Source: Somniosus microcephalus
Taxonomy: Eukaryota
Length of the DNA stretch: 64,000 bases
Assembly: GCA_052327205.1 (NCBI GenBank)
Contig: CM126222.1
Span: 47,306,001 to 47,370,000 of the forward strand
Direction: 5' to 3'
A program made the translations under genes and the position numbers. The notes beneath the pieces are model-generated. The model was not told the DNA's origin. It searched no databases and saw only the letters and a list, made by a program, of their open reading frames with translations. Of this stretch, positions 10,169-61,111 are shown piece by piece. Position 1 is the stretch's first letter, and each line of letters starts with the position of its first letter.

Positions 10169-10929
10169 TGGCCCGTCATTTCCGAAAGGAGGCTTCCTGC
10201 GTGCGGATACCTCCTATCGGGAAAGAAATCGACGTCCTTACCTGAGGGCTCCAGAGGTGCGGCCATTTCCGATGCTGGGCCTCTCCACAGTCGAAATGCG
10301 TAGGGCCCAGGTATCCCAGGGGCGCAGGCGGTTCGCAAGCGTCCCTGGGATCATGTGGGCCAGGCGAGCCAATGGGAGAAGGGAATCTCCCTTCATACTT
10401 TTGACAGGTAGACCTGTCAAAAGTATGAATGGCGATCACCCCAAAAACACATCAAAAATTAAATAGATTTTTAAAAAACCATCACGTTTTAAAAATGAGT
10501 TAAAATTACAATTAAATATTTTAAACAAAGATTTAATTTTTTGAAAAAAATAATTAAAGTTTTTTACGGGGCTAAAAATAAACTTACCTTTTTTAAAAAG
10601 TATTTAAAAATTATAAATGTGTGAAAAAAATTATTTTTTTACTTTTTTAAAACTCTTATGCTGGTAAAAGCAGGCCTTAAGCCTGCTTTGACCAGGCGTA
10701 AGATTTTTAAGTGTTTTCAGCGGGCGGAGGTTCTGCAGAAAGCGGAACTCTCCCCCCGCAGAGGCCCTTCTCCAGGGCAGGCGGAGGATCTGTCAAGACG
10801 ATTCTTGACAGATCGGAAATACCGGTTTTCAGCGCGTGCACTTCGCATGCCTGAAACCGGCATTTCCGATTTCTCTACGGGTGTGTACACAGCCCGTACA
10901 CACCTGTAGGCATCGGAAAATACGGGCCC
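10169..10929. mobile_element. Non-autonomous PIF/Harbinger-type DNA transposon (MITE family A, copy 1)
   Basis: TIRs GGCCCGTCATTTCCGA ... TCGGAAAATACGGGCC. GC-rich arms around an AT-rich core. Colinear with 22538-23232. Confidence 0.85.
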
Positions 10930-11351
10930 TTATGTTTAAATAAACACAATTATAACACACAGGGCATTTTTGCCAATGAACCTTATGGGTTAAATGAATT
11001 GATCTGCTTGGAATGTTTGAGATTTCAGGTCTGTCCAGATTGAGGTACTTCTGGGAAGTTAGTCATGCAGCAATAACTGCACTCTCACGCAGGAGAAGAG
11101 TACATTGGTTTTAAACTAGAATATTATTCGATTCCAAAGCTTTATTCATGTTGTTTTACGCTGGAAAAATGCCAGAAGAAACAGATGCCCATAAAAGCTT
11201 TGCCCAAATTCCAAAAACAGTCATATCAAAGAGGTTTGTTGACAACTGCGCCACCCACATTTTACTAAGTTGTTGTTTTTGTTTCTTCACACTCTTCACT
11301 TGGAAGGAATAGTGTGAGGTAGTGAAAGGGTTCGCAGGCTGACATAGTCTG

Positions 11352-11583
11352 GGGAAGGCGCCGAACACCTCGAGTCTCTTCGCCGGGAGCAAGCAGAAGC
11401 CAAGCGCAGGCAGCGCAAGGAGCGCACATCAACTTAGGCACCCCACCCACCCGCCCCTTCAACCACCGTCTGCCCCACCTGTGACAGAGACTGTAGGTCC
11501 CGCATTGGACTCATCAGTCACCTGAGAACTCATTTTTAATGTGGAAGCAAGTCATCCTCGGCTCCGAGGGACTGCCCAAGAAG
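11352..11583 (+). mobile_element. RTE-clade LINE 3' end
   Basis: Encodes the RTE C-terminal Cys/His motif region (CPTCDRDC...IGLISHLRTH). Near-identical to the reverse complement of 46081-46290. Putative 6-bp TSD agtctg at 11346-11351 and 11584-11589. Confidence 0.85.
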
Positions 11584-11589
11584 AGTCTG

Positions 11590-11852
11590 ACCGACAGTGT
11601 GAACACGCCTTCCATGGCCCTAACCATCTTTATACCAGCCAATAGGGTGGTTAGTCCTGTATGGCAGAAGGGTTTTATGGGCTCCCACAACCCATACGAT
11701 GAGGGTGGCCTCCCACATCCACCAGACATGAATATCCCACTGGCTGTCAATCCCAAATTCAGAGCTCTGGTCTCCACATGCTGGAGTGGGGTTTGACCCC
11801 TTCACCTTCTGAATCGGAGGCATGAATGCTGCCACACAGCCAAAGGCTCACT
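11590..11852 (-). mobile_element. tRNA-head SINE (interrupted by the RTE insertion)
   Basis: ctggagtggggtttgacccc...accttctgaatcggaggc...cacacagccaaaggct is the reverse complement of a tRNA-derived head with A/B-box remnants. Confidence 0.6.
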
Positions 11853-12306
11853 CCTATTTCACTAAGTTAAGATGATAGTATAGTGAGACGAACAAGGCAA
11901 AGCCCAGGGCTCCACAAGATTTAGGGTTCCTGAAGTTGATTTTTTAAATTCCAGATTTGAGCTTTAGCAAAATCTGCATCCAACATTCTCAGTTAAAATT
12001 TCCGTTCAGCTTTCAAATGTATTCCTGATGTCTTCGGGGAAAACCACAGGGAGAAAAAAATCAAATGAAGGCTTTAATTTTCAATAGATGCAACAGAATT
12101 TTTGTGATTTAAATTGGAGTATTTGCAAATGCTTTACTAATAAATATTCTCAAATTCTACGTGACGTTAAATTTTAATTTAAAATGAGCTTGTTCGATAT
12201 ATATTTTTTAAAAACAAGCTTCAGTCAGTTCCACTTAAGTACATAAAGAAAACATATAACATCTTAACTTTGCCAGTACTGGTTCAAATTAGTAGTTCGA
12301 TTGATT

Positions 12307-14081
12307 GGCCCGGATTTTGCATTCATCGGTGATTGAACAGCACTCGCCCTTCATTACACTGGCAGCTTCCCACAGACTTTTTATGGGCTTTTGAGTGGCA
12401 ACCTGTGGTCATCGGGCATCTGATACAGCATGGCGCCCTCTACAGGGGATGTGGGACCTGTGTGAACAGGGCAAGCAACAGCGTTTCTCCTCAGCCAATC
12501 AGGTTGAAGAATCCTCACCGAGACCCGTATGGGGCGACTTTTGGCAGCGCATTCAGGTGTTAACGATCCTCCGAGGTGGCCAAGATGGGTCTTAAGCTGA
12601 AACACTTGTTTTACCCCACGCTTAGCGCATGATGCCCTCTTGGTGACCAGTTGAAGCCTGCGCTAGGAACGGCTGCCCAGAGCCTGGTTGAACAGTTGAT
12701 GCCACTTAAAATGCCTGCTAGCACTCATTAAAGAGCACAGCATTTTGGTGGCTAGCGCTTGTCCTAACGCCCTCTCCTAACAGTGACCAGCTGTTTGAGA
12801 GTAAACGCGGCCTTGCTGTTGATTTCAAGCGCTACTTAAAGGGATACTCACTATTTCATGTTCATTGCTGCTGGAGCTGTGAAAAGGACCTCTGAAACAC
12901 ATCAGGAGACTTTCTGAGACACTTTGTCAAGACTTCACCAACACTCAAGCAACATTTATTCTGGAAATTCTCTGAGGACTTCACCTAAAAAGAGTGCGTG
13001 CTGTGCAGGAGATAGGAAGTGCTTGGTCATGGACATCTTGCTAGGGGTCCCCTGTGGTCTGGACAAGGAATGGGAGGAGGACACGCGGCCAGGCAGAGCA
13101 GCATCAGCTGCTGCAGGAGAGAGGGACAGCAGGGCAAGGAGGCGAGGTGGCGTCCTTCACCCCTGTAGGTACAGGACATCCCTCCTCCTCTGGACCTCCT
13201 CCACCAGGACCTCAAGAGCCGCGTCCGAGAACCTTTGTGCCCTCTCCCTCGGTCCCCGAGCCATCCTGCAACGTGCCTGTGTGTGCCAGCCAGAGCCCTC
13301 CACACCTTCAGTGGAAGTGGGTGCGAGGAGCCCACATATACTGCTCCACGAAAATTGAGCACTGCACTCATTTCAGCCTTTGGCCAAAATAACTTCCGCA
13401 GAATCTAAACAAGGAAGTGTAAGTTAGAATAGTTAAATCATTGCAAGTTCATGTACCGGAAACAAAATAAAGAGGGAAAGAAAGAAGGGATTAAGAGAGA
13501 GAGATAAAAGAGACAGAAAGAAAAAGTAAAAAAAAAGTTTTAATGTTTAATTTTTTTTAAAAATCTCCAATAATTAAAATTTGAAAGAATGAAACTCCAC
13601 ACTTTAAAAAGTAAATTTTCAGTGCCAGAGAGGTTGTTTGGTAGTAATAAATACTTACTACCAATATTCCCTCTTTTTTTTGGGTGCGCGGCCCCTTTAA
13701 GGCGCGAAACTTAAAATTAAAAAAGCCGGTCTCGGGTTGTGCGGGACCGGCAGAGAGCTGCACAGCCGCGCAGCCTATAGGGAGCCACTAAAAATTCACT
13801 CAAACTTGAATGGGCAAGCTCTAACTTATTCTCGTATGTCTGTGGGCAACTAGTGGGTAAGTACCGCAACTTCACGCCGTTCTTGTGTTTGAATGCCGAA
13901 TCTCTCGGCGAGGTACCAGTGTAGCGAAGCTTGTGGAGGAGCAGGGCAAATCGGACATCAACTTCCTGATTTCTGTGTTTAACTGCGCATGTGCGGACGC
14001 CAGAAGTTGCGGTCCGATTTACTCCTTAATAACGGTGAGCGCGGATAGCCTCACCATTATTACTACCGCAAAATCCGGGTC
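12307..14081. mobile_element. Non-autonomous Harbinger element (1.77 kb) with a possible transposase 5' remnant
   Basis: TIRs GGCCCGGATTTTGC ... GCAAAATCCGGGTC flanked by the 3-bp TSD ATT/ATT. The internal + strand segment ~13030-13350 (MDILLGVPCGLDKEWEED...RRRGG..PCRYR) resembles acidic/Arg-rich N-termini of vertebrate HARBI-like transposases (recalled, weak). Confidence 0.8.
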
Positions 14082-15770
14082 ATTATTTTTTTTTTGTTTT
14101 CGCACATTATTCTCTAGGATTTTTTAATCAGCACTTTACAAAAACATAGGACTGTGGTGGTGCTATGAACTAAATCCCATCCTGCAGTAGAGCTCATCAC
14201 TCTTCTGTGTACTCTCAAAAGCCAATCCTGTCTAATGTGCACATTAAACTTCTGCCCAGAAGCTTTCTAAAACAATACTTTATTAAAACACACACGTTTT
14301 AGAAGTGTTTTACATTACTTCGGGTTTGAATTTATAGGATTACATTTCCTTTTTTAATTTAAAGCCATTCAATTCATATTTCAGTTCTCACTTTTTAAGT
14401 GGAGAACCCCCACCTCCATCCCCCCCAACAAAAACAAGCCATGTTGCACAGAAGACCAACTGATTAACTTCGAGCAGCCTATTTGAAATAAATATTGCAG
14501 ATTTGAAGAGTGTGTGAATCAAAATGCAGGAAACAAAATGCAAGTCGAGGTAAATAAATAATTAGTAATTAAAGAATAAGGAAATACTTGTTGCAGATAT
14601 TTAATCATCAATTTATTTTAGTGCTTTCATGCTGACTCTCAGCATCAAGTTTATTGTGCAAGCCTTTTCATTTTTTTTAAAGTTTATTTATTTTCGCTTT
14701 ACTGCTGTGAGAATATATTTTCTAACAACCAATATTCTTTTACTTAGTGACAAGTGCTAGTGTAGAACAGTGACCTTTCCTGCTTGCCTCAGCAGGTCTT
14801 TAAGCATGTGATAAGAAAAAGTAAACACCATGAATAATCCTGCTGTGATTTTTCACAACTTTTTATCCAATTAGAAGCTAGGGGGTTTACAATACTCGAT
14901 ATCCTGATAAGCCAACAATAGAAGAATTCATTTCGCATTATAGTCAGCTCAATGGAATTAAAGTTCTTTTAAGACACAGAGGGAATTGTGCATGTTGTGG
15001 GCATTTCCATGCTGCTTTATTTTAAGTTAGAATGAGGAACTCCACTATGTAAACTTTAAATGCAGATACATTCCTTATCATGAGCTGGTAATTTTAAACG
15101 GCCACAGAAATCTAACCAAAGAACAAGAGCATCAGTATATGGCACTGCTTACTGGAAAAAAAGCTATACAAAGATATCTTAGTATTTGAAGGGAAAGACA
15201 ATCATTAACCATTTCAATAACACATTCAATTAAATAAGACCAAAGTGGCAATAAACCAAAATATTATAAACTTAAAGTACTCAAAAGCTAATAAATACGT
15301 GACATTTAACTGACAGCCGGATCAACAGAGCCTGATAAATCTGTATTACAGCTCAATATAACTGCATTTTAACCACATGGTGATGATGAAAGGCCTGTCA
15401 ATCAGGATTAAATGGGCTCTTCGGCAAAGACATGAACTTTTCCCTTTGACCTTTGTTAGCATCAAATGATGTTAGCACTGTCTTGCTAAAAAAGCTGAAG
15501 AAGCCAACCTTCTTCCAGATGGCAAAGGCCTTTCCACTTGGGATATACAGAATGAATTCCCAACCACCTTACACGGTCCAATTTCTTGGAACTCAGATGG
15601 ATTGGGGTAGTCTATTAGTTCCAGCGATGATTTAAATCAGTATTACAAGACTCATACTCCATGGTCCCCTGGGGGGAATTACCCTGAGTCAGTGTGTCCT
15701 ACTTTGATTTGATAATTGATAACATTTCCTTTTTAACGGACTACCTTCTGTAGTTTTTCCACATTCTCAC

Positions 15771-15936
15771 AGGCACATCAAAGTAGAAAAGGAACAAGGC
15801 CAGAATACATTCCCAAGCATTACATGCCATTGGTGTAAACGTATCAAAGAGACTTTGTTCCTTCTAACCAGATGATGGGTGGAGGAATATTCTGCACCAC
15901 AATTAAGTTTTTCTTCCCACCACAAGTACCTCAATT
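15771..15936 (-). other. Candidate cassette or non-coding exon (166 nt)
   Basis: Acceptor ttttatttttccactcatttttgttcctctccag and donor CCT|gtgaga. One frame is open (ELRYLWWEEKL...TLMC), but the product is not recognised and the length is not a multiple of 3. Confidence 0.25.
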
Positions 15937-16999: not shown

Positions 17000-17350
17000 T
17001 CCACCTTGATTTATACTGAGGTACAGTTCCCTCTGCTACCTCAAGTCCCTATTCCTCAATGTGTGAACCTACACAGTATCAGCAGGCTTTTTCACAACTA
17101 GGACATCACAGCCAAACCTAATTACCTCCTTAGCCTTACACGCCCTTTCCATCAGGAGTCACTGGATAGCAAAGAAGAAAGTCTGGATGATATTTCCGCC
17201 CCCCACCCCCACTCTTGCCTAGGGACACTGAAGCCAATTACTGGTCTGGCTGAGATCAGCTAACTCAGCAAAAAGAGATTCAGGCTGGAAACTTCCTGGT
17301 CTGTTTGGCTCAGTCTCATACTGAGCAGTGCATTTACCCATTCGGCCAGC
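17000..17350 (-). mobile_element. Ancient tRNA-derived SINE (AmnSINE2-like family), near complete
   Basis: ggctgagatcagctaactcagca, gagtcactggatagc and head cttcctggtctgtttggctcag...gcatttaccc. Confidence 0.65.
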
Positions 17351-20556: not shown

Positions 20557-21340
20557 GGGCGCGATCTTGCCAGGCCTGGGGAGGCAGGTATGGAGGCGGG
20601 ACTGCCGAGAAAATGGTAGAATTTGGGGGCGGGTGCCCAACCCGCCTCTGTGCCATCTTCCCAGGAGGCGGGTAGCCGACCCACGCCGGGTCCTGTCTCC
20701 TTGGAGGCGGGAAGGGGATGACAGCCACTTAACTGCCTGTTAACAGGCAGATAAGAGGATTATCCCCATTTTACCCACACAAGTGCGGGCTTCCCGAAGG
20801 CTGCGAACCCTGCCAAGCGAGCAGTGGGTCTGCGGGGTGCAAAAGTGCGCTGTGAAGGTGAGTGATGGGTGCAAGTGTGGAGAGGTGAGTATCTGAGGTA
20901 AGTGGAAAGTGTCAGAAAATGTTTACTTACCTTTGTTTCTTCCTGCAGGCGTCAAGAGTTGGGTATGCGGAGAGTCTCGCACCTCCGCGGCAGAGATGGC
21001 AGATTCTCCAATGCAGCAACCATCTCATTTCTGCTAAAGAAAGAGGTTTGATGAGTCTTGAATTCAAGCACTCATCAAACTACAGAGAATGTCAGTATTT
21101 GACAGCTTCACAGAGCTGTCAAACGATGACAATTCATCTGTCAAAAATTTTTGACAGATGAAACGACATACGTTGACGTTCTCTGTAACCGGCTTTCCCT
21201 TAATTGGCCTGCTCAGCCCGCTTAACAAGGTCAATCAAGGGAAAATAGCGCGGGTTGGCCACAAATTGATGGAGGCGGGACATCGACTCGACAAGCAGCA
21301 GTCCCGCCTCCAACGCGCCCCCATTGACAAAATTGCCCCC
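20557..21340. mobile_element. Harbinger-type MITE (family B)
   Basis: Imperfect TIRs GGGCGCGATCTTGCCA ... TGACAAAATTGCCCCC. The right arm is closely similar to the reverse complement of 27157-27400. Confidence 0.75.
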
Positions 21341-22537
21341 CCGTCCCCATCAGTATCAATACAATATTTACAGAACCCACAAGCACTATTGTCTTATTTA
21401 CTTGTGTGCTGTTTCTTCATGCACTAGTTTATTGAAATTTAATGCACAATATGCTAGAAGATTGATAAAACTATATCTTAAGCAATGATTACATAAATAT
21501 CCATAAGGTCTCATAAAATTAGAGTAGTCACTTTAACAAATTGCCAAAGGAAATTGGCAACACGGTTATCACACTGAGTCAATACAGAATGGAGTGTGTA
21601 AGTAATCCAATATAGGCAACAATTATTCTGTAAAAAGCGATAGATGGCAAAGGATTGCTCTTGCTAAAGCATTTACCACCACCCTGGCACCTCCACGATC
21701 AAGTAAATATTATGATAGAGATGCCCAAAATGTTTTAAGATACAAAAGAGCACCCATTAAAAAATTACAATAGTAATTCAATTGTAAACTAACCATATTA
21801 AAAACAGTTCCTTATGAGGAAATGCTTGAATTCCTTACAGCAAACAGTTAAGAATTTGGGGGAAAAAAATTACTACAACACAAGACACAAGCTATGAGAT
21901 TTCTCACACATGTTACAAAAGCAATTTGGGGTATTTTATGAAAAAAAAGAAACAACATTTTGCATTTGGTTAACGTCTACATGCCCAGATCTGAATGAAT
22001 AATTTGTCGCCTGTCACACAAAAATCCAATTCTGCTGTTAAATATTTGCGCACTGCAAACATCAGTCAATGATATCTCTATTCACTGCCTAAGCTTTGCG
22101 TAGGGTCCTTTCCTGCCCAGGGGAAGATTATTCAACAACTAACCTCCTCTGGGAATTTTACTGCAAGGGAAATTTCTTCAATCTGGAATTGGGAGTGCAA
22201 GATAAAATTACAATGAACGTTAACCTATGGAAATGTTTTACTCAATGAGTGTGATGAGGTATGATTATAGGTACATGATCGTAACTATCCCTGCTCCATT
22301 AAAATGACAAAACATGAGCTCACAAGGGATATCCGGAAAGTGTATCAATGCTTGTAACCATCTAACTGGGTGCTTTGGGTGTCAAAACAGCGTGAAACAG
22401 TCAAGGGAACAGCAGTGGTGACAATATCCATACAACACCAGAGACAACTTAATCACAGAGCAGTGGGCTTGTGCTGAGGGATTCTTTTTCTGTCTCAGTC
22501 CAGTATTTGGCATCTACAGGATTTTTAAAAAATCATG

Positions 22538-23232
22538 AGCCCGTATTTTCCGATCGGAGGCTTCCTGCGTGCGGAGGCCTCTGATCTGGAAAAATCTACG
22601 GACTTACCTGAGGGCTCCCGAGGTGCGTATACTTCCGCTCCTGGGCCTCTCCAAACTCGAAATGCGCAGGGCCCTCGTATCCCAGAGGCGCACGCAGTTC
22701 ACAAGCATCCCTGGGATCATGTGGGTCATGGGGAGCCAATAGAAGGGAATCCCCCTTCATACACTTGACAGATAGACCTGTCAAATATATGAATGGAGAT
22801 CACCACAAAAACACTGTAAAACATTAAATAATTTTTTTTTTAATCACATTTTTAAAATGATTTGAAATTACAATAAATTAAATATTTCAAACAAAAATAA
22901 ACTTACCTTTTTAAAAGTATTTTAAAATGATAAATGAGTGGAAAAAAAATTTAAAACTTTTTTTCAACTCTTATGCTGGTAAAAGCAGGCCTTACACTTG
23001 CTTTTACCAGGCGTAAGGTTTCTAAGGGTTTTCTGCAGGCGGAGGTTCTCCAGAAAGCAGAACTATCCGCCCGCAGAGGCCCATCTCCAGGGCAGGCGTT
23101 CGATCTGTCAAGAGCATTCTTGACAGATTGGAAATGCCGGTTTTCAGCGCATGCGCTGTGCATGCCTGAAACCGGCATTTCCAATGTCCTTATGAGTGCG
23201 TACGCACCCGCAGGGATCAGAATATACGGCCC
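22538..23232. mobile_element. Harbinger-type MITE (family A, copy 2)
   Basis: TIRs AGCCCGTATTTTCCGATC ... GATCAGAATATACGGCCC with 3-bp TSD ATG/ATG. Colinear with 10169-10929. Confidence 0.88.
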
Positions 23233-24189: not shown

Positions 24190-26308
24190 GTAATCCAAAC
24201 ATTTAAGGAGATATTTCATAACTCTCAACAGAAATATATTCCAGTGAGAAAGAAAGATTTTAAGAGAAGGGAGCACTATCTGTGGCTAACTAAGGAAGTA
24301 AAGGATGGTATCAAATTGAAAATGAAGGCATACAATGTTGCCAAGATTGGTGGGAGGCCAGAGGATTAGGATATTTAAAAAAACCAGCAAAGGATGACTA
24401 AAAAAATAATAAAGAGAGAGATGAATTATGAGAGTAAACTGACAAGAAATATTAAAACAGATAGTAAGAGCTTCGACAGGTATATAAAAAGGAAGAGAGT
24501 AGCTAAAGTAAACGTTGGTCCCTTAGAGGATGAGAATGGGGTATTAATAACGGGGAACGGGGAAATGGCAGAGACTCTGAACAAATAGTTTGCATCTGTC
24601 TTCACTGTAGAAGACACTAACAACATCCCAATAATGGATAATCAAGAGGCCACAGGGAGGAGGGAACTAAAGACCATCACGATCACTAAGGAAAAAGTAC
24701 TTGGTAAAATAATGGGACTAAAAGACTACAAGTCCCCTGGACCAGATGGCCTGCATCCCAGGGTCTTAAAAGAAGTGGCTGCAGAGATAGTGGATGCATT
24801 GGTTGCAATATACCAAAATTCCCTGGACTCTGGAGAGGTCCCAGCGGATTGGAAAAACCGCAAATGTAACGCCCCTATTTAAGAAAAGAGGGAGACAGAA
24901 AGCAGGAAACTATAGACTAGTTAGCCTAACATCCGTCATTGGGAAAATGCTGGAGTCCTTCATTAAGGAAGCGGTAACAGGGCATTTGGAAAATCATAAT
25001 GCAGTCAAGCAGAGTCAGCATGGTTTTAGGAAAGGGAAATCATGTTTAACAAATTCGCTGGAGTGCTTTGAGGAGGTAACGAGCAGGGTGGACAAAGGTG
25101 AGCCAGTGGATGTGGTGTATTTGGATTTCCAGAAGGCATTCGATAAGGTGCCACATAAAAGGTTACTGCATAAGATAAGAGCTCACGGAGTTGGGGGTAA
25201 TATATTAGCATGGATAGAGAATTGGCTGACGAACAGAAAGCAGAGAGTCGGGATAAATGGGTAATTTTCCGGTTGGCAAACGGTAACTAGTGGGGTGCCA
25301 CAGGGATCGGTGCTGGGGCCTCAACTATTTACAATCTATATTAATGATTGGATGAAGGGACCGAGTGTAATGTAGCCAAGTTTGCAGATGATACAAAGAT
25401 GGGTGGGAAAGCAAGTTGTGCAGAGGACTGAAAGAATCTGCAAAGGGATATAGACAGGCTAAATGAGTGGGCAAACATTTGGCTGATGGAGTATAATGTG
25501 GGAAAGTGCGAGGTTATCCACCTTGGCAGGAAAAATAAAAAAGCAAATTATTATTTGAATGGAGAGAGATTACAAAATGGTACAGTTCAGGGGGACCTGG
25601 GGGTCCTTGTGCATGAAACACAAAAAGTTACCATGCAGGTACAGCAAGTAATCAAAAAGGCAAATAGAATGTTGGCCTTTATTGCAAGGGGGTTGGAGTA
25701 TAAAAGCAGGGAAGACCTGCTACAACTGTACAGGGTATTGGTGAGACCACACCTTGAGTACTGTGTACAATTTTGGTCTCCTTATTTAAGGATATACTTG
25801 CATTGGAGGCAGTTCAGAGACGATTCACATGGTTGATTCCTGAGATGAGGGGGTTGACTTATGAAGAAAGGTTGAGCAGGTTGGGCCTATACTCATTGGA
25901 ATTTAGAAGAATGAGAGGTGATCTTATTGAAACCTATGATACTGAGGGGGCTCGACAAGGTAGATGCAGAGAAGATGTTTCCCATCATGAGGAAATCTAG
26001 AACTCGGGGGCATAGTTTCAGAATAAAGGGTCGCCCTTTTAGAACTGAGATGAGGAGGAGTTTCTTCTCTCAGAGGGTCGTAAATCTGTGGAATTCTCTG
26101 CCCCAGAGAGCCGTGGAGGCTGGGTCATTAAATACATTTAAGGTGGAGATAGATTTTTGCAAGATAAGGGAGTGAAGGGTTATGGGAAATGGGCAGGGAA
26201 GTGGCTTTGAGCCCAAGATCAGCCATGATTTTATTGAATGGCGGAGCAGGCTCGAGGGGCCAAGTGGCCTATTCCTGCTCCTATTTCTTACGCTCTTATG
26301 TTCTTATG
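24190..26308 (+). mobile_element. CR1/L3 LINE, 5'-truncated, ~2.1 kb, broken ORF2 reverse transcriptase
   Basis: [61 protein letters not shown] and FADD (tttgcagatgat at 25381) are spread over frameshifted ORFs. CR1 3'UTR and cttatgtt tail. Confidence 0.97.
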
Positions 26309-27156: not shown

Positions 27157-28484
27157 GGGCTGGATTTTGTCAATGGGGACGTGATGGAGGCGGGACTCCC
27201 ACTTTTTGGGTTGTAGTCCCGCCTCCATCGATTTGTGGCCAACCCACGCGATTTTCCCTTGATTGACCTTGTTGAGCTCAGCAGGCCAATTAAGGGACAC
27301 CCGGTTACAGGTGATGTCAGGGATTGACATTTCATCTGTCAAGAGCTTTTGACAGATGAAATATCAGCGTTTGACAGCTCTGTGAAGCTGTCAAACACTG
27401 ACAATCTGATTTCTAACTTGAGTCCTTCTCCACAGACTCAGTTAAAAATCTCTCCAAAACAGAAAGCAGAATGCTGCAACTTTTGACAGCTCGCAGCCAT
27501 TCTGCTTTCTGTGCCGGTGAGATGAGGGACTCCCGAGACCTGAAGGAAGGAAGCCTGCATTAGTAAGTAAAGGTAAGTAAAACTTATTTAAACACTTTGC
27601 ACACACCAAACACACTTACCTCTGCACTCATGCACCCATCACTCACCTGAATATCGGACATCTCGACCCCGCCAACCTTTTCAGACCGACAGTCCGCCTT
27701 GCTAACTTGGCGTGATTTGGAGCCGTCAGGAGGCCACACTTCAGGGCTAAAAATAGGGATTAGGCCAAAAACTGCCTGTTAACTACCGGTTAACAGGCAG
27801 TTAATTGGCACTAACAACAGAAAATGCTGGAAAAACTCAGCAGGCCAGGCAACATCCGTGGAGAAAAATTAGAGTCGATGTTTCGGGTCTAACCCTTTTT
27901 CAAAACTGGAAAGGAAATGAAATAGATTGAAAGGCAGGGCTGGGACAGAACAAAAGAAGTGAAGAGACATTAAGAGGTATTCAAAACGAGACGAGATGGT
28001 GATAGGACTAGTGGAGACAAAAGACGGCTCAGATTAGGTGTGAAATGTTCTGGCAGAATGAGAGACAGCTGCCATGTGGGAGAGAGAAAAAAAAGGAAAG
28101 GGGGGGGGGGGGGGGAAACCAAAACAAAGGGGTGGATAAAAAATATAAGTGAAAATGTAATAGGGGCCGAGGTTATGATCTGAAATTGTTGAACTCGATA
28201 TTGAGTCCGGAAGGCTGTAAAGTGCCTAATTGGAAGATGAGGTGCTGTTCCTCGAGTTTACACTGAGCTTCCGTGGAACAATGCAAGAGGCCAAGGACGG
28301 TGAGGTCCGGTTAATTGGCACTAATCCCCTTCCCGCCTCGGGGAGGCAGCTCCCAGCACAGGTCGGGTACCCGCCTCCTGGGAAACAGGCATGAAGGTGG
28401 GTTGGGGGCGGGAAGGGTTCGTGCCCCCCGATTCTGCAATTTTCCCCCCACACCCGCCTCCACGGGGCTTGGAAATTCGAGCCT
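27157..28484. mobile_element. Harbinger-type MITE (family B) inserted into CR1
   Basis: TIRs GGGCTGGATTTTG ... GAAATTCGAGCCT with TSD TAT/TAT. Homologous to 20557-21340 in the opposite orientation. Confidence 0.85.
27815..28309 (-). mobile_element. Penelope-like retroelement 3' fragment inserted into the MITE
   Basis: The minus strand encodes LGLLHCSTEAQCKLEEQHLIFQLGTLQPSGLNIEFNNFR (GIY-YIG C-terminus). Flanked by the perfect 15-bp direct repeat GTTAATTGGCACTAA (27800-27814, 28310-28324). Confidence 0.85.
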
Positions 28485-30490: not shown

Positions 30491-30813
30491 CAGGAAACTT
30501 TTTTTTATCTGGCACGGACGGGACCGACGTGGTGCCGGTTCATCAAAAATTCCAGATAACCGAAAGCTATAGTAAAAGATACGGAGCTGAGAGCTCCGTA
30601 TAAAGCAACAAACCCTGTTGCTTAGCAACAGGTTCAGAACAATGGCCACAAGTTGCAAGCGTCTCTGTAGCTTAGCAACAGCTGCAGCCACACCCTTGCA
30701 CAGCAACAGATGGAGGAAGGCAAGTAATAAAAGTTACCTGAACCTACTCCTGAATTTTGCCGGTTAACCGAGATTTCCGGTTATTTAGGTGCCGGTAAAT
30801 CGAAAGTTTCCTG
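30491..30813. mobile_element. Tigger/pogo-type MITE (Tc1/mariner)
   Basis: TIRs CAGGAAACTTT ... AAAGTTTCCTG with TA/TA TSD. Repeated subterminal ccggtt motifs. Confidence 0.85.
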
Positions 30814-35727: not shown

Positions 35728-36527
35728 GGCCACGATTTCAACAGCGCTGAGAGGGCCGGTTTGGAGGCGGGTCAAGGGATAAAATTGTTTTGATTGACGG
35801 CGGGTTCCAATCCGGCGGGAAGAGGATTAGAGCTACTTACCTGCCTGTTAACAGGTACTTGATAGTAGTTGACAGGCTCTTTTTCAATTTTGCCACTTCT
35901 GCCTCAGGTTTCCCGATGTCCGGACACCACGCCAGGTAAGTGTGGCGTGTTGTGAGTCTGCTCTAATGTTTCTGGTTGATGACAGCTGCAGAAGTGGTGT
36001 GAAGGATCCAGTGGTGCACTGGTGAGTCTCAGAGGTAAGAAAATGTTGGGAAATTCATTTTTAATGCATTTACACATTTCTTTAGGGAACAAGTTTTGAA
36101 ATCCATGTCCAGTGACACCTCATTGGGAGAGCCTCTCATCAGTGACAGATCGCTTCTGTCACCTCACCTGCAGTTGCCATCTGTTCCAACCTATGGAGGG
36201 AGTCATTGGAGAGCCTGGGTGCAAGAGGTCACCTTTGTGCAGTGATTTTCAGTGTTTGCAGCACCTCAATGCTGTCAAACACTGAGAAATCAGCAGTCAA
36301 ACAAAAATTGTGCGTGGTCCCTTTAAGAAAACCGGCAGATGACGCGTCATGAAATGACATCATCTGACCGGCTTCCTCTTAATTGGCCAGCAAGCCCACA
36401 GGGCGGGCTTAACAAGGTCAATCAAAGTAAAACCACGTCCGTGGGCTGGATGCAGTTGGGGGCGGGACTGGAAGCCAGAAACCACCTGACCCATTCCCAA
36501 GCCACATCCACTAACATAATCACGGCC
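35728..36527. mobile_element. Harbinger-type MITE (family B, older copy)
   Basis: GGCCACGATTT ... AATCACGGCC with TSD TAA/TAA. Shares cttaacaaggtcaatcaa and cttaattggcc with 21180-21240. Confidence 0.75.
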
Positions 36528-40170: not shown

Positions 40171-40842
40171 GCAGGTACAGCAAGCAATAAGGAAGGCAAA
40201 TGGCATGTTGGCCTTTATTGCAAGGGGGTTGGAGTATAAGAGTAAGGAAGTCTTACTGCAATTGTATAGGGTCTTAGTGAGACCACACCTGGAGTACTGT
40301 GCACAGTTCTGGTCTCCTTATCTAAGGAAGGATATACTTGCCTTGGAGGTGGTGCGACGAAGGTTCACTAGATTGATTCCTGGGATGAGAGGGCTGTCCT
40401 ATGATGAGAGATTGTGTAGAATGGGCCTATACTCTCTGGAGTTTAGAAGAATGAAAGGTAATCTCATTGAAACATACAAGATTCTGAAGGGGATTGACAG
40501 GGTAGATGCTGAGAGGTTGTTTCCCCTGGCTGGAGTGTCTAGAACTAGGGGGCATAGTCTCAGGATAAGGGGTAGGCCATTTAAGACTGAGATGAGGAAG
40601 AATTTCTTCACTCAGAGGGTTGTGAATCTTTGGAATTCTCTGCCCCTGGGGGCTGTGGATGCTGAGTCTTTGAGTATATTCAAGGCTGAGATTGATAGAT
40701 TTTTGGACTCTAGGGGAATCAAGGGATATGGAGATCGGGCGGGAAAGTGGAGTTGAGGTCGATGATCAGCCATAATCTTATTGAATGGTGGAGCAGGCTC
40801 GAGGGGCCGTATGGCCTACTCCTGCTCTTACTTCTTATGTTC
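40171..40842 (+). mobile_element. Young CR1 LINE 3' end
   Basis: Uninterrupted 183-aa ORF 40205-40756 (LEYKSKEVLLQLY...RPHLEYCAQFWSP...VNLWNSLP) plus 3'UTR and tail. Confidence 0.96.
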
Positions 40843-42831: not shown

Positions 42832-43365
42832 ACAGAAACATAGAAGATAGGAGCAGGAGTAGGCCATTCGGCCCCTCGAGCCTGCTCCGCCATTTAATGA
42901 GATCATGGCTGATCATCCAAATTCAGTACCCTGTCCCTGCTTTCTCCCCATATCCCCTGATCCCTTTAGCCTTAAGAAATATATCCAACTCCTTCTTGAA
43001 TATATTTAATGAATTGGCCTCAACTGCCTTCTGTGGTAGAGAATTCCACAGGTTCACCGCTCTCTGGGTGAAGAAATTCCTCCTCATCTCTGTCCTAAAT
43101 GGCCTACCCCTTATCCTTAGACTGTGACCCCTGGTTCTGGACTCCCCCGCCATCGGGAACATCCTTCCTGCATCTAGTCTGTCTAGTCCTGTTAGAATTT
43201 TATACGTTTCAATGAGATCCCCTCTCATTCTTCTAAACTCCAGCGAGTATAAGCCCAATTGACCCAATCTCTCCTCATACGTCATTCCTGCCTTCCCAGG
43301 TATCAGTCTGGTGAATCTTCGCTGCACTCCCTCCATGGCAAGAACATCCTTCCTCAGATAAGGCA
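42832..43365 (-). mobile_element. CR1 LINE 3' end
   Basis: ORF 42923-43381 (PYLRKDVLAMEGVQRRFTRLIPG...NLWNSLPQK) plus 3'UTR. Confidence 0.95.
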
Positions 43366-45869
43366 ACCATAGGGCTGCCACTGCCTGTGATGCTATCCCT
43401 CAGCAAGAGTTAGCACGCTCAGGAGAGATAACTGGGATGAAACCGAAGGATGTTAGCTTGCAGAGAGGTCTGTAAAATTTTGCAAAGATCTGTGAAGCTA
43501 TTTTCAAGAGGTTTGCTTCTATCATTTTATCACAGATGGGCCGCCAGATGTGCAGACAGACAGGGCCACCACTAGAACTGCTTTTTCATAGAAGCTGTAT
43601 ATGTGACTGGTGCCTTCTAAGAATTAATCTACTTAGGAAGCACTTAAGCACTGTATGCAAAGCTGCTAATATATTGGGCTAGGCTTGCATGTATTGATTC
43701 TGTTACATATTCAATACATTGAAAACTTTTTGTTCCTTACCTTTAAAGCAAGTACTTAAAAACAGCCTTGGCCAGCGTTGAATTACACAATGAACAGTTC
43801 ACAAAGAGGCAGAGCACAGTACAAAGTTTTACATTTAATTCTTTAGCAAAGTCTCCTTTTAAAAATAAAACCTGTTTCTTGGTACTAATAACTCTTCAGT
43901 CCCGAGTCTCCCATTAACCACAGCCGCTGTAAAACCACATAACTCTATTGAAACATTAACAAGAAGGATTACCTCCACTGCCATGTATGATGAATAGCTA
44001 CTAATGAGTTCCTGCTGTGCAACTGGTCACTTCAATAATATGAAGAGCATCTTCCATCAATAGCTGACATGCAGCAAAATAGCTTTATTCATCCTCTGTA
44101 GCCAACAGATTTGGTTCAAGCACGTTTTGCACATTGCATTTTAATTAAGTCAGACAAATTAATTTGAGGCAATAAGAATTTGTTTAGACTGTTGCATTTT
44201 CATTCACCTTCACGTTACAGTTCTCCAAAGACAACAACATGGATGACTGGCCTGCTGAAAACCCTATTTGCAGAGTCAGGTTAATTTGATATGAAGGACA
44301 CTTTATACAATCTAGGCAAACTATTCAAAATCCCTTAGCCAACAACAGGACAAAGAATCCTTCTACTAATTTTATGATACCAGGCACAGGTTATTCAATC
44401 TGGAGTACTGGGTGACTACACGAATCAAAGGTAATTAATGTAGTTCAGGTGTATTGTTGCACCTTTCCATGTCTGCAGGAGATGCTACAGATTTATCTAC
44501 TTACACCTCCTTATATTTCAAGTTCTTGACCTTGGGACAGTTAGACTAACATTTACAGTAACTTCAGATATAGTTTGAAATACAGAATCAAAAATAAAAC
44601 ATTTAAATCTGAAGATGTATTATCTATTTATATTATAAAAAAAGTGTCCATTTATTGTCTGTTTTGCGTGATGTCTTGTTCCGTACTAACCACATGACTG
44701 TTCATAAAAATCAGTTGCCTTAAAGCAGACCGTCTTTCCAGCACTGATCAACAGTTCTCCTGATTTCATTTTTCCACGTCTTTTGTACAGCCAAAACCAC
44801 AATCACAATCAGCAACATGCCAGTCCAGGATTCGGAGCAGGAGCAGTAGGCTCAGATCTGGAGCAATCATAAGTGCCTGTAATGATAAGGGTGGATTGCA
44901 AGTACCAGCACGCAGAGCCGGGCCTGCATTGGGCAACAAGTAGAAAGCGAAGTTAGACCTGGATTGAGCAGGGAGGGGAATCTCTTACCAGTGTACATTG
45001 CAGCAGTTCTCTGATGTGCCAATACAAGCTGGGGTTGTGGCTCTAGATCCAGTGCAACAGCAACAGGACGACCCTCCAGTACAGGGTAGAGGGGCATCCC
45101 AACCCTTTGCACCAGACCTCTGCATATTCCTGGCCTAAGCCACCTATCTAATCTCCCACTCCCTTGTTCATACCGAATGAGGGATGATATCATTACAGAG
45201 GGTTGGACAGCTCAGTCGAGTTCCAATATTTGCTGAGACAAAAAGACAAAAGAGAGAAGACCATACAAAAATTGTGTGTGAGACACAGAGAGGGAAGGAG
45301 GAGCTTGCAAAAGGAGTGAGAAGAGAGAGTTGGAGAGATAAAGATGTAGCACGAGTGAAAGCCAGAGAGACAGGCACTACTAAAACAAAAAGGAAGACAA
45401 GCAGAGAGCCTGTTACAGAAAAATAGAGATACGTTGTTTTTACTTTTGTCGATGAGCAACACCGTTGGCAGTCAATTAGTGTATATTACATGGAAAAGAT
45501 GATTGAGTTACAATAGTTTGTGAGGAAAGCAGATTACTACAAAAATCGCTATGTGCAGTATATTAACAGTTAACAGGCAAAGTGCATGAAGATAATAAAG
45601 GGCAAGTAACACTGGTTGGAAGAAGATATCGGTGTGAATAATAACCTTACACAAACAAAAAGTGGAGGACAGGATCTTTCATAATTAGAGTCACTAACAA
45701 ATTGTAAAACCTATTTAAAAGCACAAAACAAAGCTACTGATAAGATAGCTCGGCAGACGGAAAATACACCAAGGTTGCTACCAATGCGATACTGTTTACC
45801 CTGTGAAAAAACACCCATCAAGAGGGGTTTTGTACAGAATAATCTTCTTTTCTTTTATGGCTATAATAA

Positions 45870-50146: not shown

Positions 50147-50690
50147 TAGAAACAGAGAAACATAGAAAAATAGGAAACATAGAAAAATAGGAGCAGGAGT
50201 CGGCCATTCGGCCCTTCGAGCCTGCTCCGCCATTCAATATGATCATGGCTGATCCTCTATCTCAATACCATATTCCCACTCTCTCCCCATACCCCTTGAC
50301 GCCTTTTGCATCTAGAAATCTATCTATCTCCTTCTTAAATATATTCAGTGACTTGGCCTCCATAGCCTTCTGTGGTAGAGAATTCCACAGGTTCACCACC
50401 CTCTGAGTGAAGACATTTCTCATCACAGTCCTAAATGTCCTACCCCGTATCCTGAGACTGTGACCCCTCATTCTAGAGCCCCCAGGCAGGGGAAACATGC
50501 TCCCTGCATCCAGTCTGTCTAGCCCTGTCAGAATTTTATATGTTGCAATGAGATCCCCTCTCATTCTTCTAAACTCTAGTGAATACAGGCCTAGTCGACC
50601 CAATCTCTCCTCATACGACAGTCCTGCCATCCCAGGAATCAGTCTGGTGAACCATCGCTGCACTCCCTCTATGGCAAGTATATCCTTTCT
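50147..50690 (-). mobile_element. CR1 LINE 3' end
   Basis: ORF 50262-50663 is the CR1 C-terminus. gaaacata-type tail repeats. Confidence 0.95.
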
Positions 50691-50849
50691 TGTTCATAAA
50701 ACTCCCAGTAAACGTTAACCTGGTAAAGCCACATCATAAAAGTTTGATCATTTCTGTCGCAAAGCACTATTTCCATTTTCAAATGTAAATGTAAGACTGT
50801 AACTGCAAGAACAATACAAATAAAAACAAATTCACAGCTCCCCCAATGA

Positions 50850-53075: not shown

Positions 53076-53094
53076 ACAAAGTTATTTGAAGAAC

Positions 53095-55984: not shown

Positions 55985-56512
55985 ATTAGGAAAAGAGCAG
56001 TAATGTTGAACTCATATAAATCTTAGTTTAGCTGCAGCTGCAATACTGTGGAAGCTTTGGACTTGAACCCACAACCTTCTGGCTCAGAGGTGAGAATGCA
56101 ACCACTGAGCCAAAGCCAACACCTTATGTTATGAAGAGAAACTTGGGAAGCTGGAGCTTGTTCACTGAAGCCGAGAAGGTTAATGTTGGCCTGGTAGAGG
56201 TCTTCAAGATTAAAAAGGGTTATGATAGGGCAGTGATAGAGTACAAATTTAAGATAATTACAAAAATAATTAAATGGAAGGTTAGGAAAAGAAATCTTAA
56301 ATGGAAAATGGTTAGAGTGTTAAATTCTCTGCAGCAAACGGTTGTTGAAGCAGTAATTTTGAAAGGGAATTAGGTAGTTGCTTAAAAAAAGAGTATTAAA
56401 GAATATTGGGAGCAAGTTGGAGAGTAGGATTAGATTAAGTGGCTCATGTGGAGAAAACAACAGCACAGACTGATGCCCTATTTCCGTGCTGTAACTTTCT
56501 ATGATTCTATCA
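55985..56512 (+). mobile_element. Old CR1 3' end with a SINE head inserted (~56058-56122, minus strand)
   Basis: Decayed LVEVFKI.KGYDR...RVLNSL..TVVEA and ttctatgattctat tail. Insert ggacttgaacccacaaccttctggctcagagg. Confidence 0.7.
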
Positions 56513-56649
56513 TATTTTTAAAATTGAATTGGAATTCAATAAATTGGCACAATTATTAACAAACAATCTGAATATTCAAAAAGTTAATTAGTCTGCAAGT
56601 CATCTTCAGTTGTATATTATCTGTTTACTTTACTTTTGGATGTTGTTCA

Positions 56650-58250
56650 AAATTCTTGAACCTGTCCAGAAGAATATCCATTTTGAAAATCACTACACTA
56701 ACTATGTTTGGATCCTCCAACAAGGTTCAGTTTGGGGTAGTAAAAGTATTCTTGAGCAACTCTGTACTTATCAGACTGTTTTCATCAGTCCTATTTTACT
56801 GGCTGTCCTCTTGCCTGAATTGGTGTCAGAAGGAATAACTATCGCCAAGGTCACCCAATGAAAAACATTTGGGTATATTTGCTGAAGTGTGAAGTGTGGA
56901 GTTGGTCTGCTTGCCTGTCATCAGATGACTGATAGAATGCTCTTCTGCTCTAGCTGAGACTTGAGCTTGCCTTCTAAACATAAACATCTGCTGCCTGAAT
57001 GACTGAAACTCAAGCAGTAACCTGCCCTTGTCCAATACAGGAACTAGACTTTTTTGCTCTCTTCTGTCGATGTCTGTCCTCTTCACCTCATCAAAGTTTC
57101 CAAAGACTTTGACTTATTTATTGCCGTAGTCATGCAACTTGCTGCTGTCCTGTGGCAGATTCCTATGGTCAAGTGTGCTAAAAGCTTCAAAGTGCTTAGA
57201 GTTTTAAAAGCAGTTTTAAATTATATGACTAAGACGCAGATAATTCTTCATGGCTTCGTCATGAAAGCTTCCGCGACCATCCTTCTTATTGCCTTTCTCA
57301 TTTTATGCTGAAATGTAACTGGAACATATATTGTGGCTTTTTAAAGTTGCTGGTAGGACCAGAAAAAAAACCAGGAATACCCATGATGTCATGTAATTTC
57401 CTGATCACAAACACATTCTCAGGAGTCACAGGCTGCACTCTGATTCCGATTGCCTCTGGTTTCCTTTTATGAAAAAAAATCTGATTCAAGAGCACTTCAA
57501 ATGTTACAATGTCAAATTAAACTTCTGTCACAAGTCTCTATGTGAGGGCCACCTGCAATCTGTTGATTTGATTACTTTAAGCTTATTTCCTACAATTCCC
57601 TGTAGCTAAGCAAGAATCTCTGATGTGCACTGTTGCAAAACAGATTACCAAGAGCTACAAAACAAAACTCAGCCCTTTTCAGAATAGGATTCCTGGAGAG
57701 GAGGTGCTTGAAGCACAATGTAAGTTTGGGGTTTCTGTAGTTGATGTTCAATGAATATGCTGCATGGTGAATGATGAGTCTTTTTTTTTACTGTGCCACA
57801 GATTGCACTGAAACCATATAGGCTAACAATTAGACATTCTCAATCTTGATTTCCTTGGTTAAAGAGGAACTGCTAAATATATCTCATTAAACTTTCTGCT
57901 GTTATTTTGTTATGCTTATCATGTGCCAAGAAAATGCTTTTTGGAAGCATTTTGTGTTTTCATCCACCATTGACATAATGTTCTTGATTATTTTCATGTG
58001 TGGATTCAACAATCCCAATGATATGTTATTTCACAACAAATTAAACTAAGAACAGCTCTTCAATATAGTCATTAACACATAGTATAAACTCTCATTACCA
58101 GCTACATAAATAAGTGACTTCAAGGTCTGCTTATAAATACATGCTCATTTTCAGCAAATCTATAGGGTCCTGAAAATCCAGAATGCACATCTGTCTACAG
58201 TTATTGCAGCGTTTATGCAGCAAAGCTGCCAATAATTCTGTGCTTTAAGA
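56650..58250 (-). pseudogene. Fossil hAT transposase, ZNF862-like
   Basis: Colinear minus-strand motifs: MSMVDEN (~57977-57955), LKVIKSTDCRWPSH (57581-57540), KPEAIGI..KLHDIMGI (ORF 57298-57495), FEAFSTLDHRNLP...DYGN (~57192-57120) and TLAIVIPSDT..GKRTASKIGLMKT (~56855-56776). Many stops and frameshifts. Confidence 0.72.
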
Positions 58251-60276
58251 TGTATATGGTCTTTAGAACGCTTCCCCACAGACAGCTGCCTGTATAGATA
58301 ACTGAATATATAACAAAACATTACTTTCTGTTGTCAATTTTTCTCATCATAAATGCTGTCCACATTTATAATGGAACTGCATATGTAAATCTGTTACATT
58401 GTTATATACATCCTTCCACCAGTGATGGTATTGTAGTACCTAAGTTTTATGTCTCCCAGTTCCCCAACCTATATTGCCGAGAAACTCCTATGCTCCAACC
58501 AGTCTCCTTCACTCTTTCCCAAATTGCCATAAGTTTTTCCATATAACAAGGTAAAATGAAAATATATTATATAAAAATAATGACTTCAAAATAGGGATTG
58601 AATTACATGTGTATCCCGGTCCAATTGTCCCCCGCCCTCACCTGAAGTCTACACTTGGTCTTGATATCCAGTGAACAATTCCATGGGTGACACATACATA
58701 CACACATATATACTCGTCGATCTCCTGTGGCATTGCACATGGTAAGTCGGAGAATATAGCCACTCTCTTACTTGTCTCTGATGTCTTTGTGTTGCTGTAT
58801 ATCTGTCTCTCCTTTTCTCTTCTCTTCTGCTTCCCTTCCTTTAACTCTTTGCTCCCCTTTGCCTTTTTCTTTTCTTTTGGGTGGGAGGCTTCTCTTCCCA
58901 TAATCACTCGTGCTTCCTCCCACTCACTCACTCCCACTGCATCCCCTACTCCTTCACTTTTTCAATCTCTCGTCCCCTTCCTGCCACCCCCTCACTCTGA
59001 TCACTACTCTACCTTTTCTCCTTCGAACTACATATGCAACCAATATATCCTCCCCTCCCCCTTGCCCCGCTGCCACTTATCGCACCCGTAACCTTCCTTC
59101 CACTCCAAGTTCCCACTCTCTCCCCCCAAAGATGGGTGGCACATGCAATGGGCCCTCTTGGCCTCTTCCTTCCTTTTTTTGTTCAATGAGGCTTTCAAAA
59201 CTCAACTTACTTAGAATCATAGAAAGTTACAGCACAGAAGTAGGCCATTCTGGAGAGCTGCCCACTTTAGTCCTACATCCCAACTTTTTTTTAAACATAA
59301 TGCTGCAAATTAAACCTCATCAAGTAAAAAATGTGATTTAAAAATAAATTAAATTATGAGGAAAGACACTATCTGTCCACCTTGTTCTCTATTTGTACGC
59401 ATGTCCCTTCCTCGCTGTCTCATAGGTGTAAGTAATTCGTATCTCTGTCTCACAGGCATAAAGAATTAGCAATTATCTTTTACAACTGTCAGCAAAACAC
59501 AGGTGGATAATTAAATGGCTTCAGAATTAAATTTTGTTTTTGAAAAGTGAATTAACATGAAGTCTCTCTCTACTCCTGCTTTCTCTTTCTCTCTACCCCG
59601 AGTATCTCTCTGCCCCTAAGCTTATTACTCTTTTTGTAGTTTATAGAACATAAAAAATCTACAAAAGGTATGGAATCAAAAGTATTTTTCCTCATTCTCT
59701 CGCAACAGGGACAAAAAGTCAATATAAATTTTACCTCAATAAAGCTATTGACATTTGTCCTTTTGTTTTTCAAAATTATTTGAATAAAAGCTACTGAGTA
59801 GAAAATGCTAGAATTTAAAGAAAAATATTTTCTCAGTAGAGTGGAGTGAAAAGTACTAATGCACCCTAGGAAATTAAGCACCCTGCATTGGCTCAAACCG
59901 CATAATCGGATTTCAGTTCACAGAATCTCAGCTCTGGGCAAAAATATAAAGTTCAAGCCCAAGCTTTTGGGAAAAGCTGAGGCTTTTGAGCAAAATCTTT
60001 CTTGGATACATTATAAGGCATAATTCAGTGAATACATTTGAATCATATTATTGGGAAATATGTAATTTAATGAATTTTCTATTTTGTTTACACCATTATT
60101 TTGGAGATCAAAAATTTCAGTTAGAGGAAAAAATAGCTTAATGTAAAAAAAACTCAAGTAATTTTGGGGAAAACAGGTGGCCAGATTGTGCAATCACAGA
60201 GCAAAATGCTTTCATCAAAATAGTAGCTATTGTGTGTCGTATAGTGTGACACCTTAAACACTGAAAAGACCTATAA

Positions 60277-60309
60277 CAGTGCCACCTACAGGACTAACTA
60301 GTACTGCAG
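60277..60309 (-). promoter_or_regulatory. Candidate CTCF site with upstream motif
   Basis: Minus strand CTGCAGTAC-tagttag-TCCTGTAGGTGGCACTG: a core-like sequence plus an upstream TGCAG module, in unique DNA. Confidence 0.5.
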
Positions 60310-60365
60310 GTACTTATGAATTTTTAATGAAACACGCAATCCATGTGCTAAATTGAATATACAAT

Positions 60366-61111
60366 GGCCCAGAAATTGGTGTCGGGGGCTTCCCGTGGGT
60401 GCAAGCCCCCGACCTACACTTACATAGCGCGCTGACAGTTGAAGCCTGGCCCTGCGTGGATTTCCTGTCAGTGGCCCGGTTCAGCTCCCGGCGCGCTGTG
60501 CTTGCGTGATCCAGCGGCGTAGTTAGTTCGATGAGCCGGCTGGGATCACGTGAGCACTGGGCAACCAATCGGAGGTTGCAAAAGTTCATTCATGAGTTTG
60601 ATAGTAAGAACTGTCAAACTCATGAAAACTCCAGGTGCCCAAAACAGTACTTAAACTTCAAATAAAAGTTTTTAAAAATCCCACTAATTAGATGAACTAT
60701 TAATAACTGTAAAAAACTAATTTAAACAATTATTCAAATTTTTGAAAAAAATAATTTTTTAACAAATCGAGTCTAAAAATACACTTACCTTACTGTAAAG
60801 TCTTTAAAAATAATAAACCTGTGGGAAAAAAATTCTAACTTTAATTAATAGACCACTTACCTTTTAAAACTAAGTACTTATGTCTGCTTTTTTCTCGCGT
60901 AAAAACTGGAGGCCTTATCGCACGGGCAACCCTGTAAAAAAAAAAGGAATTTCAGCGCGCACGCGTTCGACCTCTGAACCCCTTGGTTCAGAGGATCGGA
61001 AATGCCGGTTTTCCGCGCATGCGCTGTGCATGCAGAAAACCGGCAATTCCAGCGGTCCCACGTGTGAGTACACGGTGCTTACTCACGCGTTGGGACCCGA
61101 ATTACTGGGCC
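60366..61111. mobile_element. Harbinger-type MITE (family A-related, divergent copy 3)
   Basis: TIRs GGCCCAGAAATT ... AATTACTGGGCC with TSD AAT/AAT. Same architecture and shared motifs (ctgggatcacgtg, gatcggaaatgccggttttc, gcgcatgcgc). Confidence 0.85.

Follow-up and report, generated by a model that had tools for sequence, protein, structure and literature searches.

To our knowledge, how PIF/Harbinger transposases cut and join DNA is known only indirectly. A palindromic target site was reportedly described for Harbinger by Sinzelle in 2008, and the zebrafish Angel elements, which are MITEs (miniature inverted-repeat transposable elements), retain their inverted-repeat structure despite divergence, forming one whole-element palindrome, unlike the local hairpins described here. 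According to the parts of the reports available, PHIS elements and their MITEs (Harbinger3_DR/3N_DR, Ping/mPing) have short terminal inverted repeats (TIRs) starting with GG, a 3-bp duplication of the target site (TSD) and an extended palindromic target (PMC4482050, PMC2836001, PMC9921582), and the MITEs have their ends in common with an autonomous element encoding a DDE transposase and a Myb/SANT gene (PMC4482050, PMC2836001). We analyzed a window of 64,000 nucleotides from Somniosus microcephalus (GenBank assembly GCA_052327205.1, contig CM126222.1, positions 47,306,001 to 47,370,000), which contains three copies of a MITE family that resembles PHIS elements in all these points. The original prediction for this window was that the family keeps three internal hairpins through compensatory changes, pairing being preserved rather than sequence. 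The covariation proved to be real; a reading as RNA or as strictly conserved structure was not upheld. The accompanying premise that only the TIRs matter in such an element is outdated, since internal sequences of mPing alter its mobility, as far as the available text of that report goes (PMC9921582).

The family consists of Harbinger/PHIS MITEs of about 760 bp in at least 13 subfamilies, and the three window copies fall into three different ones. Searches of the 6.45-Gb genome with each of the three copies returned 9214, 4796 and 8663 initial candidates, and a 23-letter motif of the right end had 14,110 exact genome matches (reversed control 0). The best 40 candidates were scored per query, so that the sampled copies are skewed towards the closest relatives. 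Of 207 full-length copies, 194 were sorted into 13 subfamilies with 4 to 37 members each and a non-CpG divergence of 2.2-8.9%, and 13 stayed ungrouped. Subfamily F comprises 4 copies and has a consensus with many ambiguous sites. The subfamilies are mosaics. The GC-rich ends, which flank an AT-rich middle, are tiled with 4-5 hairpins each. All stems of the three predicted hairpins were found in place, among about nine per element. An alignment showed the stems of the three copies to be positionally homologous.

The subfamily consensuses, representing the founders, were compared in a chain of 11 contrasts, using the helices of each consensus's own fold. These contrasts contained 48 compensatory double changes and 160 single breaks, besides 18 doubles that were non-compensatory. 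Permutation of the pairing partners yielded 9.8±2.9 compensatory doubles (global) or 19.1±3.0 (within-helix), and 0 of 3000 rounds of each reached 48, showing that both arms did change together between founders, as predicted; the p-values are rough, because contrasts are non-independent, helices come from own consensuses and subfamilies are mosaics. Counted as distinct events, the compensations number 39 over 36 column pairs, and 22 once the most divergent subfamily, K, is removed.

Inserted, dormant copies were analyzed in the same respect. Their mutation rate is 0.024-0.028 in stems and 0.022-0.026 in loops, and 19,891 cells held 13 compensatory doubles versus 986 single breaks. The compensatory ones are 13 of 26 doubles, some of them common to sub-lineages, with 16.8 doubles expected. 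Private restoring changes amounted to 12 (14.4 expected); given this lack of an excess, template switching during ordinary replication of resident copies was rejected. A raw restoring count of 46 versus 14.4 was discarded, since it stems from polymorphic sub-lineages and non-restoring changes are equally inflated (67 versus 24.1). Because inserted copies decay neutrally, compensation arises in the transposing lineage and not by host selection or ordinary replication. The comparison of 39 events and 160 single breaks in founders with 13 and 986 in dormant copies gives p 1e-21, which is overstated as founders are more diverged.

Founders also have a mutation spectrum of their own. Transitions make up 34% of their arm changes (108/316) versus 53% in dormant copies (1094/2059), and C<>G changes 22% versus 10%; the transition shares in the AT-rich middle are 26% and 35%. 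Adjacent changes account for 38% in founder arms versus 17% expected, and a compensated neighbour is present for 15 of the 36 compensated pairs. In K, hairpin 1 was rebuilt with matched insertions in both arms, and hairpin Ha was perfected from B through D1 to D2 by exchange in both directions. Because of the founder mutation signature, the mosaicism, the adjacent compensations and the matched insertions of K, arm-to-arm template switching in repair synthesis is favoured. Arm-to-arm conversion, listed last among the alternatives of the original prediction, became the best fit. Short palindromic protein-binding or promoter sites would seed the hairpins, and template switching in the active lineage, at gap repair after excision, would lengthen and re-match them, repair synthesis tied to transposition copying one arm onto the other. 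We infer the link of template switching to gap repair after excision from work in yeast. Template switching is able both to generate stems and to mend them, as stated in the part of the report available (bioRxiv 10.1101/2021.04.15.439925). For the full reading, arm-to-arm copying linked to transposition together with mild selection that acts on the DNA dyads rather than on RNA, we consider the case evenly balanced.

Several observations weigh against copying between arms. The copying event itself was not directly seen among the copies compared. Transversions account for 26 of the 39 compensations, an excess that does not discriminate, since with the founder spectrum one-step copying and two-step change both predict 34% transitions. 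An apparent proof of one-step copying from this ratio (p 3e-6 against two-step change with the dormant spectrum) was gone with the founder spectrum. Founder stems change at a rate of 0.102 versus 0.199 in arm loops and 0.125 in the AT-rich middle, which points to selection, with the caveat that stems had been selected as paired. H0, Hb, hairpin 1, He and hairpin 3 are retained in 13 of 13 consensuses. Hairpins are limited to the ends, the left promoter region and the interior of autonomous elements being unfolded, and a second MITE family has the same hairpin-tiled design, which speaks against a purely neutral process. In addition, K, A and J show concerted change of a TTCCnnn/TTGCG motif at 5 scattered sites, as expected of co-evolving binding sites, suggesting that binding sites seed some stems.

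Stems changing at half the loop rate and the shared architecture of the second family are also what the main rival would predict. It holds that the hairpins are selected DNA structures, cruciforms or single-stranded folds, that assist the synapsis of ends, excision or some replicative step, and that compensation proceeds by stepwise mutation, with transposition efficiency acting as the filter in a very large population of elements. Selection of this kind likewise predicts compensation in the active lineage only. The folding z of the consensus ends lies between -4.3 and -23.8, on one strand as on the other (25 dinucleotide shuffles each; window median -0.17), and is thus below -4 in 13 of 13 consensuses despite the turnover of single hairpins; the strand symmetry of mismatches is compatible with a cruciform. 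Two autonomous copies have the array in common with the MITE, folding strongly in the last 200 bp only (z -6.8 and -9.8), with an interior near 0. However, strict keeping of pairing, as originally proposed, did not hold: in J, D1 and D2 the stability of hairpin 2 is reduced to about -2 kcal/mol, and the hairpin is deleted in the multi-copy lineage L102, L079, L089 and L182, which includes one full-length autonomous element, and among subfamilies Hc and Hd were lost in B-H, so that the youngest lack both, while Ha was gained. Founders with stem mismatches (A2, J, C2, H1) were still amplified, single breaks outnumber compensations by 160 to 48, and matched multi-base changes are hard to attain stepwise. 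We therefore regard selected DNA structure as possible but doubtful. Whichever applies, the arrays reflect either an unrecognised structural need in a cut-and-paste element or transposition-linked copying. The latter would yield R-scape-like covariation without RNA, so that inferring structure in repeats calls for caution.

The concerted motif change would also fit stems that are dyad sites bound by the transposase, by host factors or by a Myb/SANT helper acting as a dimer; both halves would then follow a drifting binder preference, and pairing would be incidental. Against this, the variable positions are the covarying ones, K exchanged the core of hairpin 1 yet retained a 20-bp stem, the concerted pattern fails in C-H, and TIR-to-TIR match is worse than that of the local arms in K, B, D and H. 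Such dyad sites seem to us improbable as the explanation.

The possibility that the hairpins are selected RNA structures, in a MITE transcript or small-RNA precursor, was addressed with mismatch counts, Rfam and RNA-seq data (101-nt reads, two runs of one study). MITE sequence does occur in the reads, in 964 records out of 16.7 million and in 4661 out of 14.4 million. These reads run in both directions and extend past both ends into unlike flanks, as with read-through of many copies. G·T and A·C mismatches are even (13:13 and 27:31), there is no strand-biased G·U tolerance, and since they are equal, RNA structure is disfavoured. Furthermore, the two strands fold alike, and Rfam gave 0 matches in 4 loci at E<=0.1. 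Selection on RNA structure was accordingly not borne out and is very improbable.

The hairpins of the individual copies are as follows. Copy 1 (subfamily A) lies on the forward strand at 10170-10928, not at 10169-10929 as first placed, with the TIRs GGCCC...GGGCC and the mismatched flanks AAT (10167-10169) and CTT (10929-10931); the boundaries given for the other two copies stood. Its left subterminal hairpin H0 (10179-10224) has 16 of 18 consensus pairs intact and is common to autonomous elements. Hb (10304-10361) has 19 of 21 pairs. It contains what we take to be an E-box-like site, and a presumed CCAAT box follows at 10369-10373; the MITE ends generally bear motifs that we assume to be promoter-like. 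Hairpin 1 with its outer extension (10385-10436) has 21 of 22 pairs; the perfect 18 bp noted before exist in this copy itself and depend on a rare A>G change, the subfamily consensus having 16 bp and a 6-nt spacer. The AT-rich middle holds, on the reverse strand at 10580-10590, a motif aligning with one in the autonomous right end; we take both to be splice-donor-like, and no joint was seen at this position in the RNA reads. On the right follow Hc (10654-10703, 20/21 pairs, lost in B-H), Hd (10720-10759, 15/15 pairs, weak or lost outside K, A and A2), hairpin 2 (10784-10817, 12/15 pairs, weak in J, D1, D2 and H1 and deleted in the L102 lineage), He (10820-10862, 16/19 pairs, in 13/13 consensuses and autonomous right ends) and hairpin 3 (10863-10919), whose outer stem extends into the right TIR.

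Copy 2 (subfamily A2, forward strand, 22538-23232) is flanked by ATG on both sides. It carries hairpin 1 with two mismatches, and an 11-nt deletion has damaged hairpin 3, leaving 5 of 17 consensus pairs. Copy 3 belongs to the young subfamily B (forward strand, 60366-61111; 2.6% non-CpG divergence) and has AAT on both sides. Its H0 (60381-60413) has 11 of 11 pairs and a sequence unlike that of copy 1, and Ha (60426-60497), weak in K, A, A2 and J, was gained and perfected in C, B, D, G and H. Hb (60498-60557) is complete with 19 of 19 pairs, and hairpin 1 (60589-60626) has 16 Watson-Crick pairs and one fixed T·G mismatch. Hairpin 2 (60971-60994) has 10 of 10 pairs, He (60998-61050) 15 of 15 and hairpin 3 (61052-61100) 16 of 19. 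Subfamily E (~1.0 kb; L157, L182, L200) is a chimera, the left ~420 bp of an autonomous element being fused to the part of the MITE that begins with the Hb hairpin. CpG observed/expected is 0.85-1.12 in the arms of all 13 founder consensuses, which suggests that the active lineage escaped methylation-driven decay.

Autonomous partners were sought with the PF13359 profile, which gave 96,622 candidates in the genome, the best 150 being scored. Both MITE-like ends were present in 16 of 20 regions around transposase matches, and the aligned autonomous elements share with the MITE ~115 bp at the left end and ~265 bp at the right end. Locus L110 contains a 386-aa DDE frame (PF13359, E 1.7e-43) and, on the opposite strand and convergent, a Myb/SANT exon (PF13873, E 1e-11). 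Pfam matches of the partner transposase are DDE_Tnp_4, Plant_tran and DDE_Tnp_1, and its closest named relatives are from sharks and rays. TIRs of the type GGCCC...GGGCC, with variants, are found in 13 of 13 consensuses. The 3-bp TSD is supported by rare triplets doubled on both sides of copies and by 12 of 15 matched copies agreeing with the paralogous empty site. Since its ends are common to elements coding for DDE and Myb/SANT proteins, the MITE is, judged by sequence, a PHIS/Harbinger element with living-looking autonomous partners, in agreement with its initial labelling as a Harbinger-type MITE. As to partners with the same hairpins, a check suggested originally, the right-end hairpins are common to both, and hairpin 1 was not seen in the 9 autonomous left ends aligned, no search having been aimed at an element carrying it. 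No splice joint on L110 was seen in the RNA reads of the two runs. A tyrosine-recombinase (Crypton/DIRS) reading of the 16-6-16 architecture of hairpin 1 was dropped, the partners being DDE Harbingers.

Some arrangements of these elements were observed in passing. The autonomous copies L103 and L107 lie on one contig with identical flanks and represent one segmental duplicate, not two insertions. One MITE holds an autonomous element nested within its AT-rich middle (L100:2980-9021), and elsewhere MITEs stand head-to-tail with one ATT triplet in common (L012:2250-2270). C1 loci (e.g. L167, L198, L209, L214, L217) are derivatives of ~1.5-2.8 kb with an inner second, inverted right end, the right-end pairs being ~0.6-1.2 kb apart.

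The target is AWT within the palindrome ANAY-AWT-RTNT, with AAT/ATT in most flanks (100 of 132 left flanks). Flanking triplets were compared in 167 copies, 27 of the 194 grouped copies being skipped for damaged ends, and were identical in 80. Mismatches by position are 25/64/28 versus 14.9 expected from decay. Decay after insertion was excluded as their source, as 98 young copies have 33 middle mismatches versus 5.8 expected. A reading without TSD (Spy-like) was also rejected, since left and right middle bases correlate (odds ratio 3.8, p 1e-4). Where both middle bases are A or T, 50 of 148 differ (0.34), 25 each way. This agrees with the equilibrium estimate of 1/3 if each end retains the donor base half the time (p 0.93), and 1/2 is rejected (p 1e-4). 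Mismatched flanks were also found in 4 of 14 autonomous copies. Empty paralogues were available for 43 of the 167 copies (9 with <3 hits were dropped, 1 had no majority), the empty site being a paralogue majority and not a true allele. In 14 of 18 mismatched copies one flank equals the empty site and the other is foreign (7 left, 7 right). L240, L180 and L143 show left-side two-base swaps to AAT/ATT, the canonical triplets.

These data fit donor-TSD overhangs carried into new sites, for which the evidence is strong but indirect. The transposase would cut across the TSD, leaving the element with 3-nt donor overhangs, which would anneal at the new target and then be resolved either way. Four results count against carry-over: in 4 of the 18 mismatched copies neither flank agrees with the empty site; several of the foreign triplets are non-canonical; the middle-base contrast with a control, the second MITE family of the window, is not significant (p 0.07); and mPing insertions from a TCA-flanked donor were TTA/TAA in 45 of 46 cases, so that carry-over was apparently rare (1/46) in the part of that study available, which scored excision repair and target choice (PMC4561436). 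In the control family, 17 of 22 copies have identical flanks (3 of 25 dropped for unclear ends; whole triplets p 0.03). As this family has hairpins yet mostly matched flanks, the data seen here do not tie the flank pattern to hairpins. If carry-over is correct, mismatched flanks are a genome-wide record that fixes one transposition step, the keeping of overhangs derived from the TSD, and as many as 3 host bases can be rewritten at each jump. Mismatched TSDs also mislead TSD-based annotation and dating. This signature is more directly testable than the hairpins, given intact-looking autonomous copies such as L110. A combined reading, in which the ends are exposed as single strands at each jump, with 3-nt donor overhangs and with hairpin arrays selected as single-stranded DNA or cruciform for transpososome assembly or a replicative step, seems rather unlikely to us. 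If true, it would help to explain the ~10^5 transposase-like loci in one genome.

The second MITE family lies at ~27157-27815 (forward strand, truncated) and ~20600-21345 (reverse strand), with further copies L306-L330 and a related piece near 36200-36500. Its elements are ~845 bp long, with GGGC...GCCC ends, a degenerate, mostly matched 3-bp TSD and hairpin-tiled ends. Its CTGTCAA/TTGACAG dyads resemble those in hairpins 1 and 2, its two window copies differ by changes that look compensatory, and splice-donor-like motifs occur in both orientations. The window also contains five LINE-like 3' tail copies (7668-8095, 25635-26290, 40171-40841, 42835-43369 and 50174-50691; 66-84% alike), presumably of CR1/L2 type. 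At 30590-30800, short perfect hairpins cluster together with recurring TTAGCAACAG motifs and may form a further small inverted-repeat element.

We found no report of donor-TSD carry-over or covarying hairpin arrays in Harbinger in the literature searched, Repbase, subscription papers and supplements being outside its scope. Compared with PHIS relatives, as covered in the available parts of the reports, the target here is AWT and not TWA or CWG, half of the copies have mismatched flanks (PMC4482050), and the ends are tiled with covarying hairpins, of which no description was met there (PMC4482050, PMC2836001, PMC9921582). The TSD is thus not the TWA of the narrow-sense PIF/Harbinger group of Han 2015. 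The Pangu group is alike in its ANT-type TSD, here dominated by AWT, its GG ends and its two open reading frames; its second frame has no known motif, unlike the Myb/SANT gene found here, and its host list contains no vertebrate, according to the accessible text (PMC4482050). The target of the element does not fit the TWA group, and its Myb/SANT gene does not fit Pangu. Stems described for template switching, in the part of the report at hand, show similar compensatory multi-base changes from arm to arm; here such changes are confined to the transposing lineage and involve nine local hairpins and no RNA gene (bioRxiv 10.1101/2021.04.15.439925). In the accessible account of the mPing model, a staggered cut across the 3-bp TSD would likewise leave overhangs on the element (PMC4561436). 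The available parts of the piggyBac reports describe elements departing with TSD-derived overhangs of 4 nt, compared with 3 nt here, and a mismatch in about half of our copies compares with ~2% non-canonical insertions there (PMC7351741, PMC8717057). The transposase belongs to another family, as its DDE_Tnp_4, Plant_tran and DDE_Tnp_1 matches and a 3-bp target instead of TTAA place the element outside the piggyBac superfamily. In piggyBac, the TSD becomes asymmetric where the donor differs from the target, one of its sides being repaired to the donor and one to the target (PMC7351741, PMC8717057); 14 of 18 mismatched copies show this asymmetry here, a single flank agreeing with the empty site.

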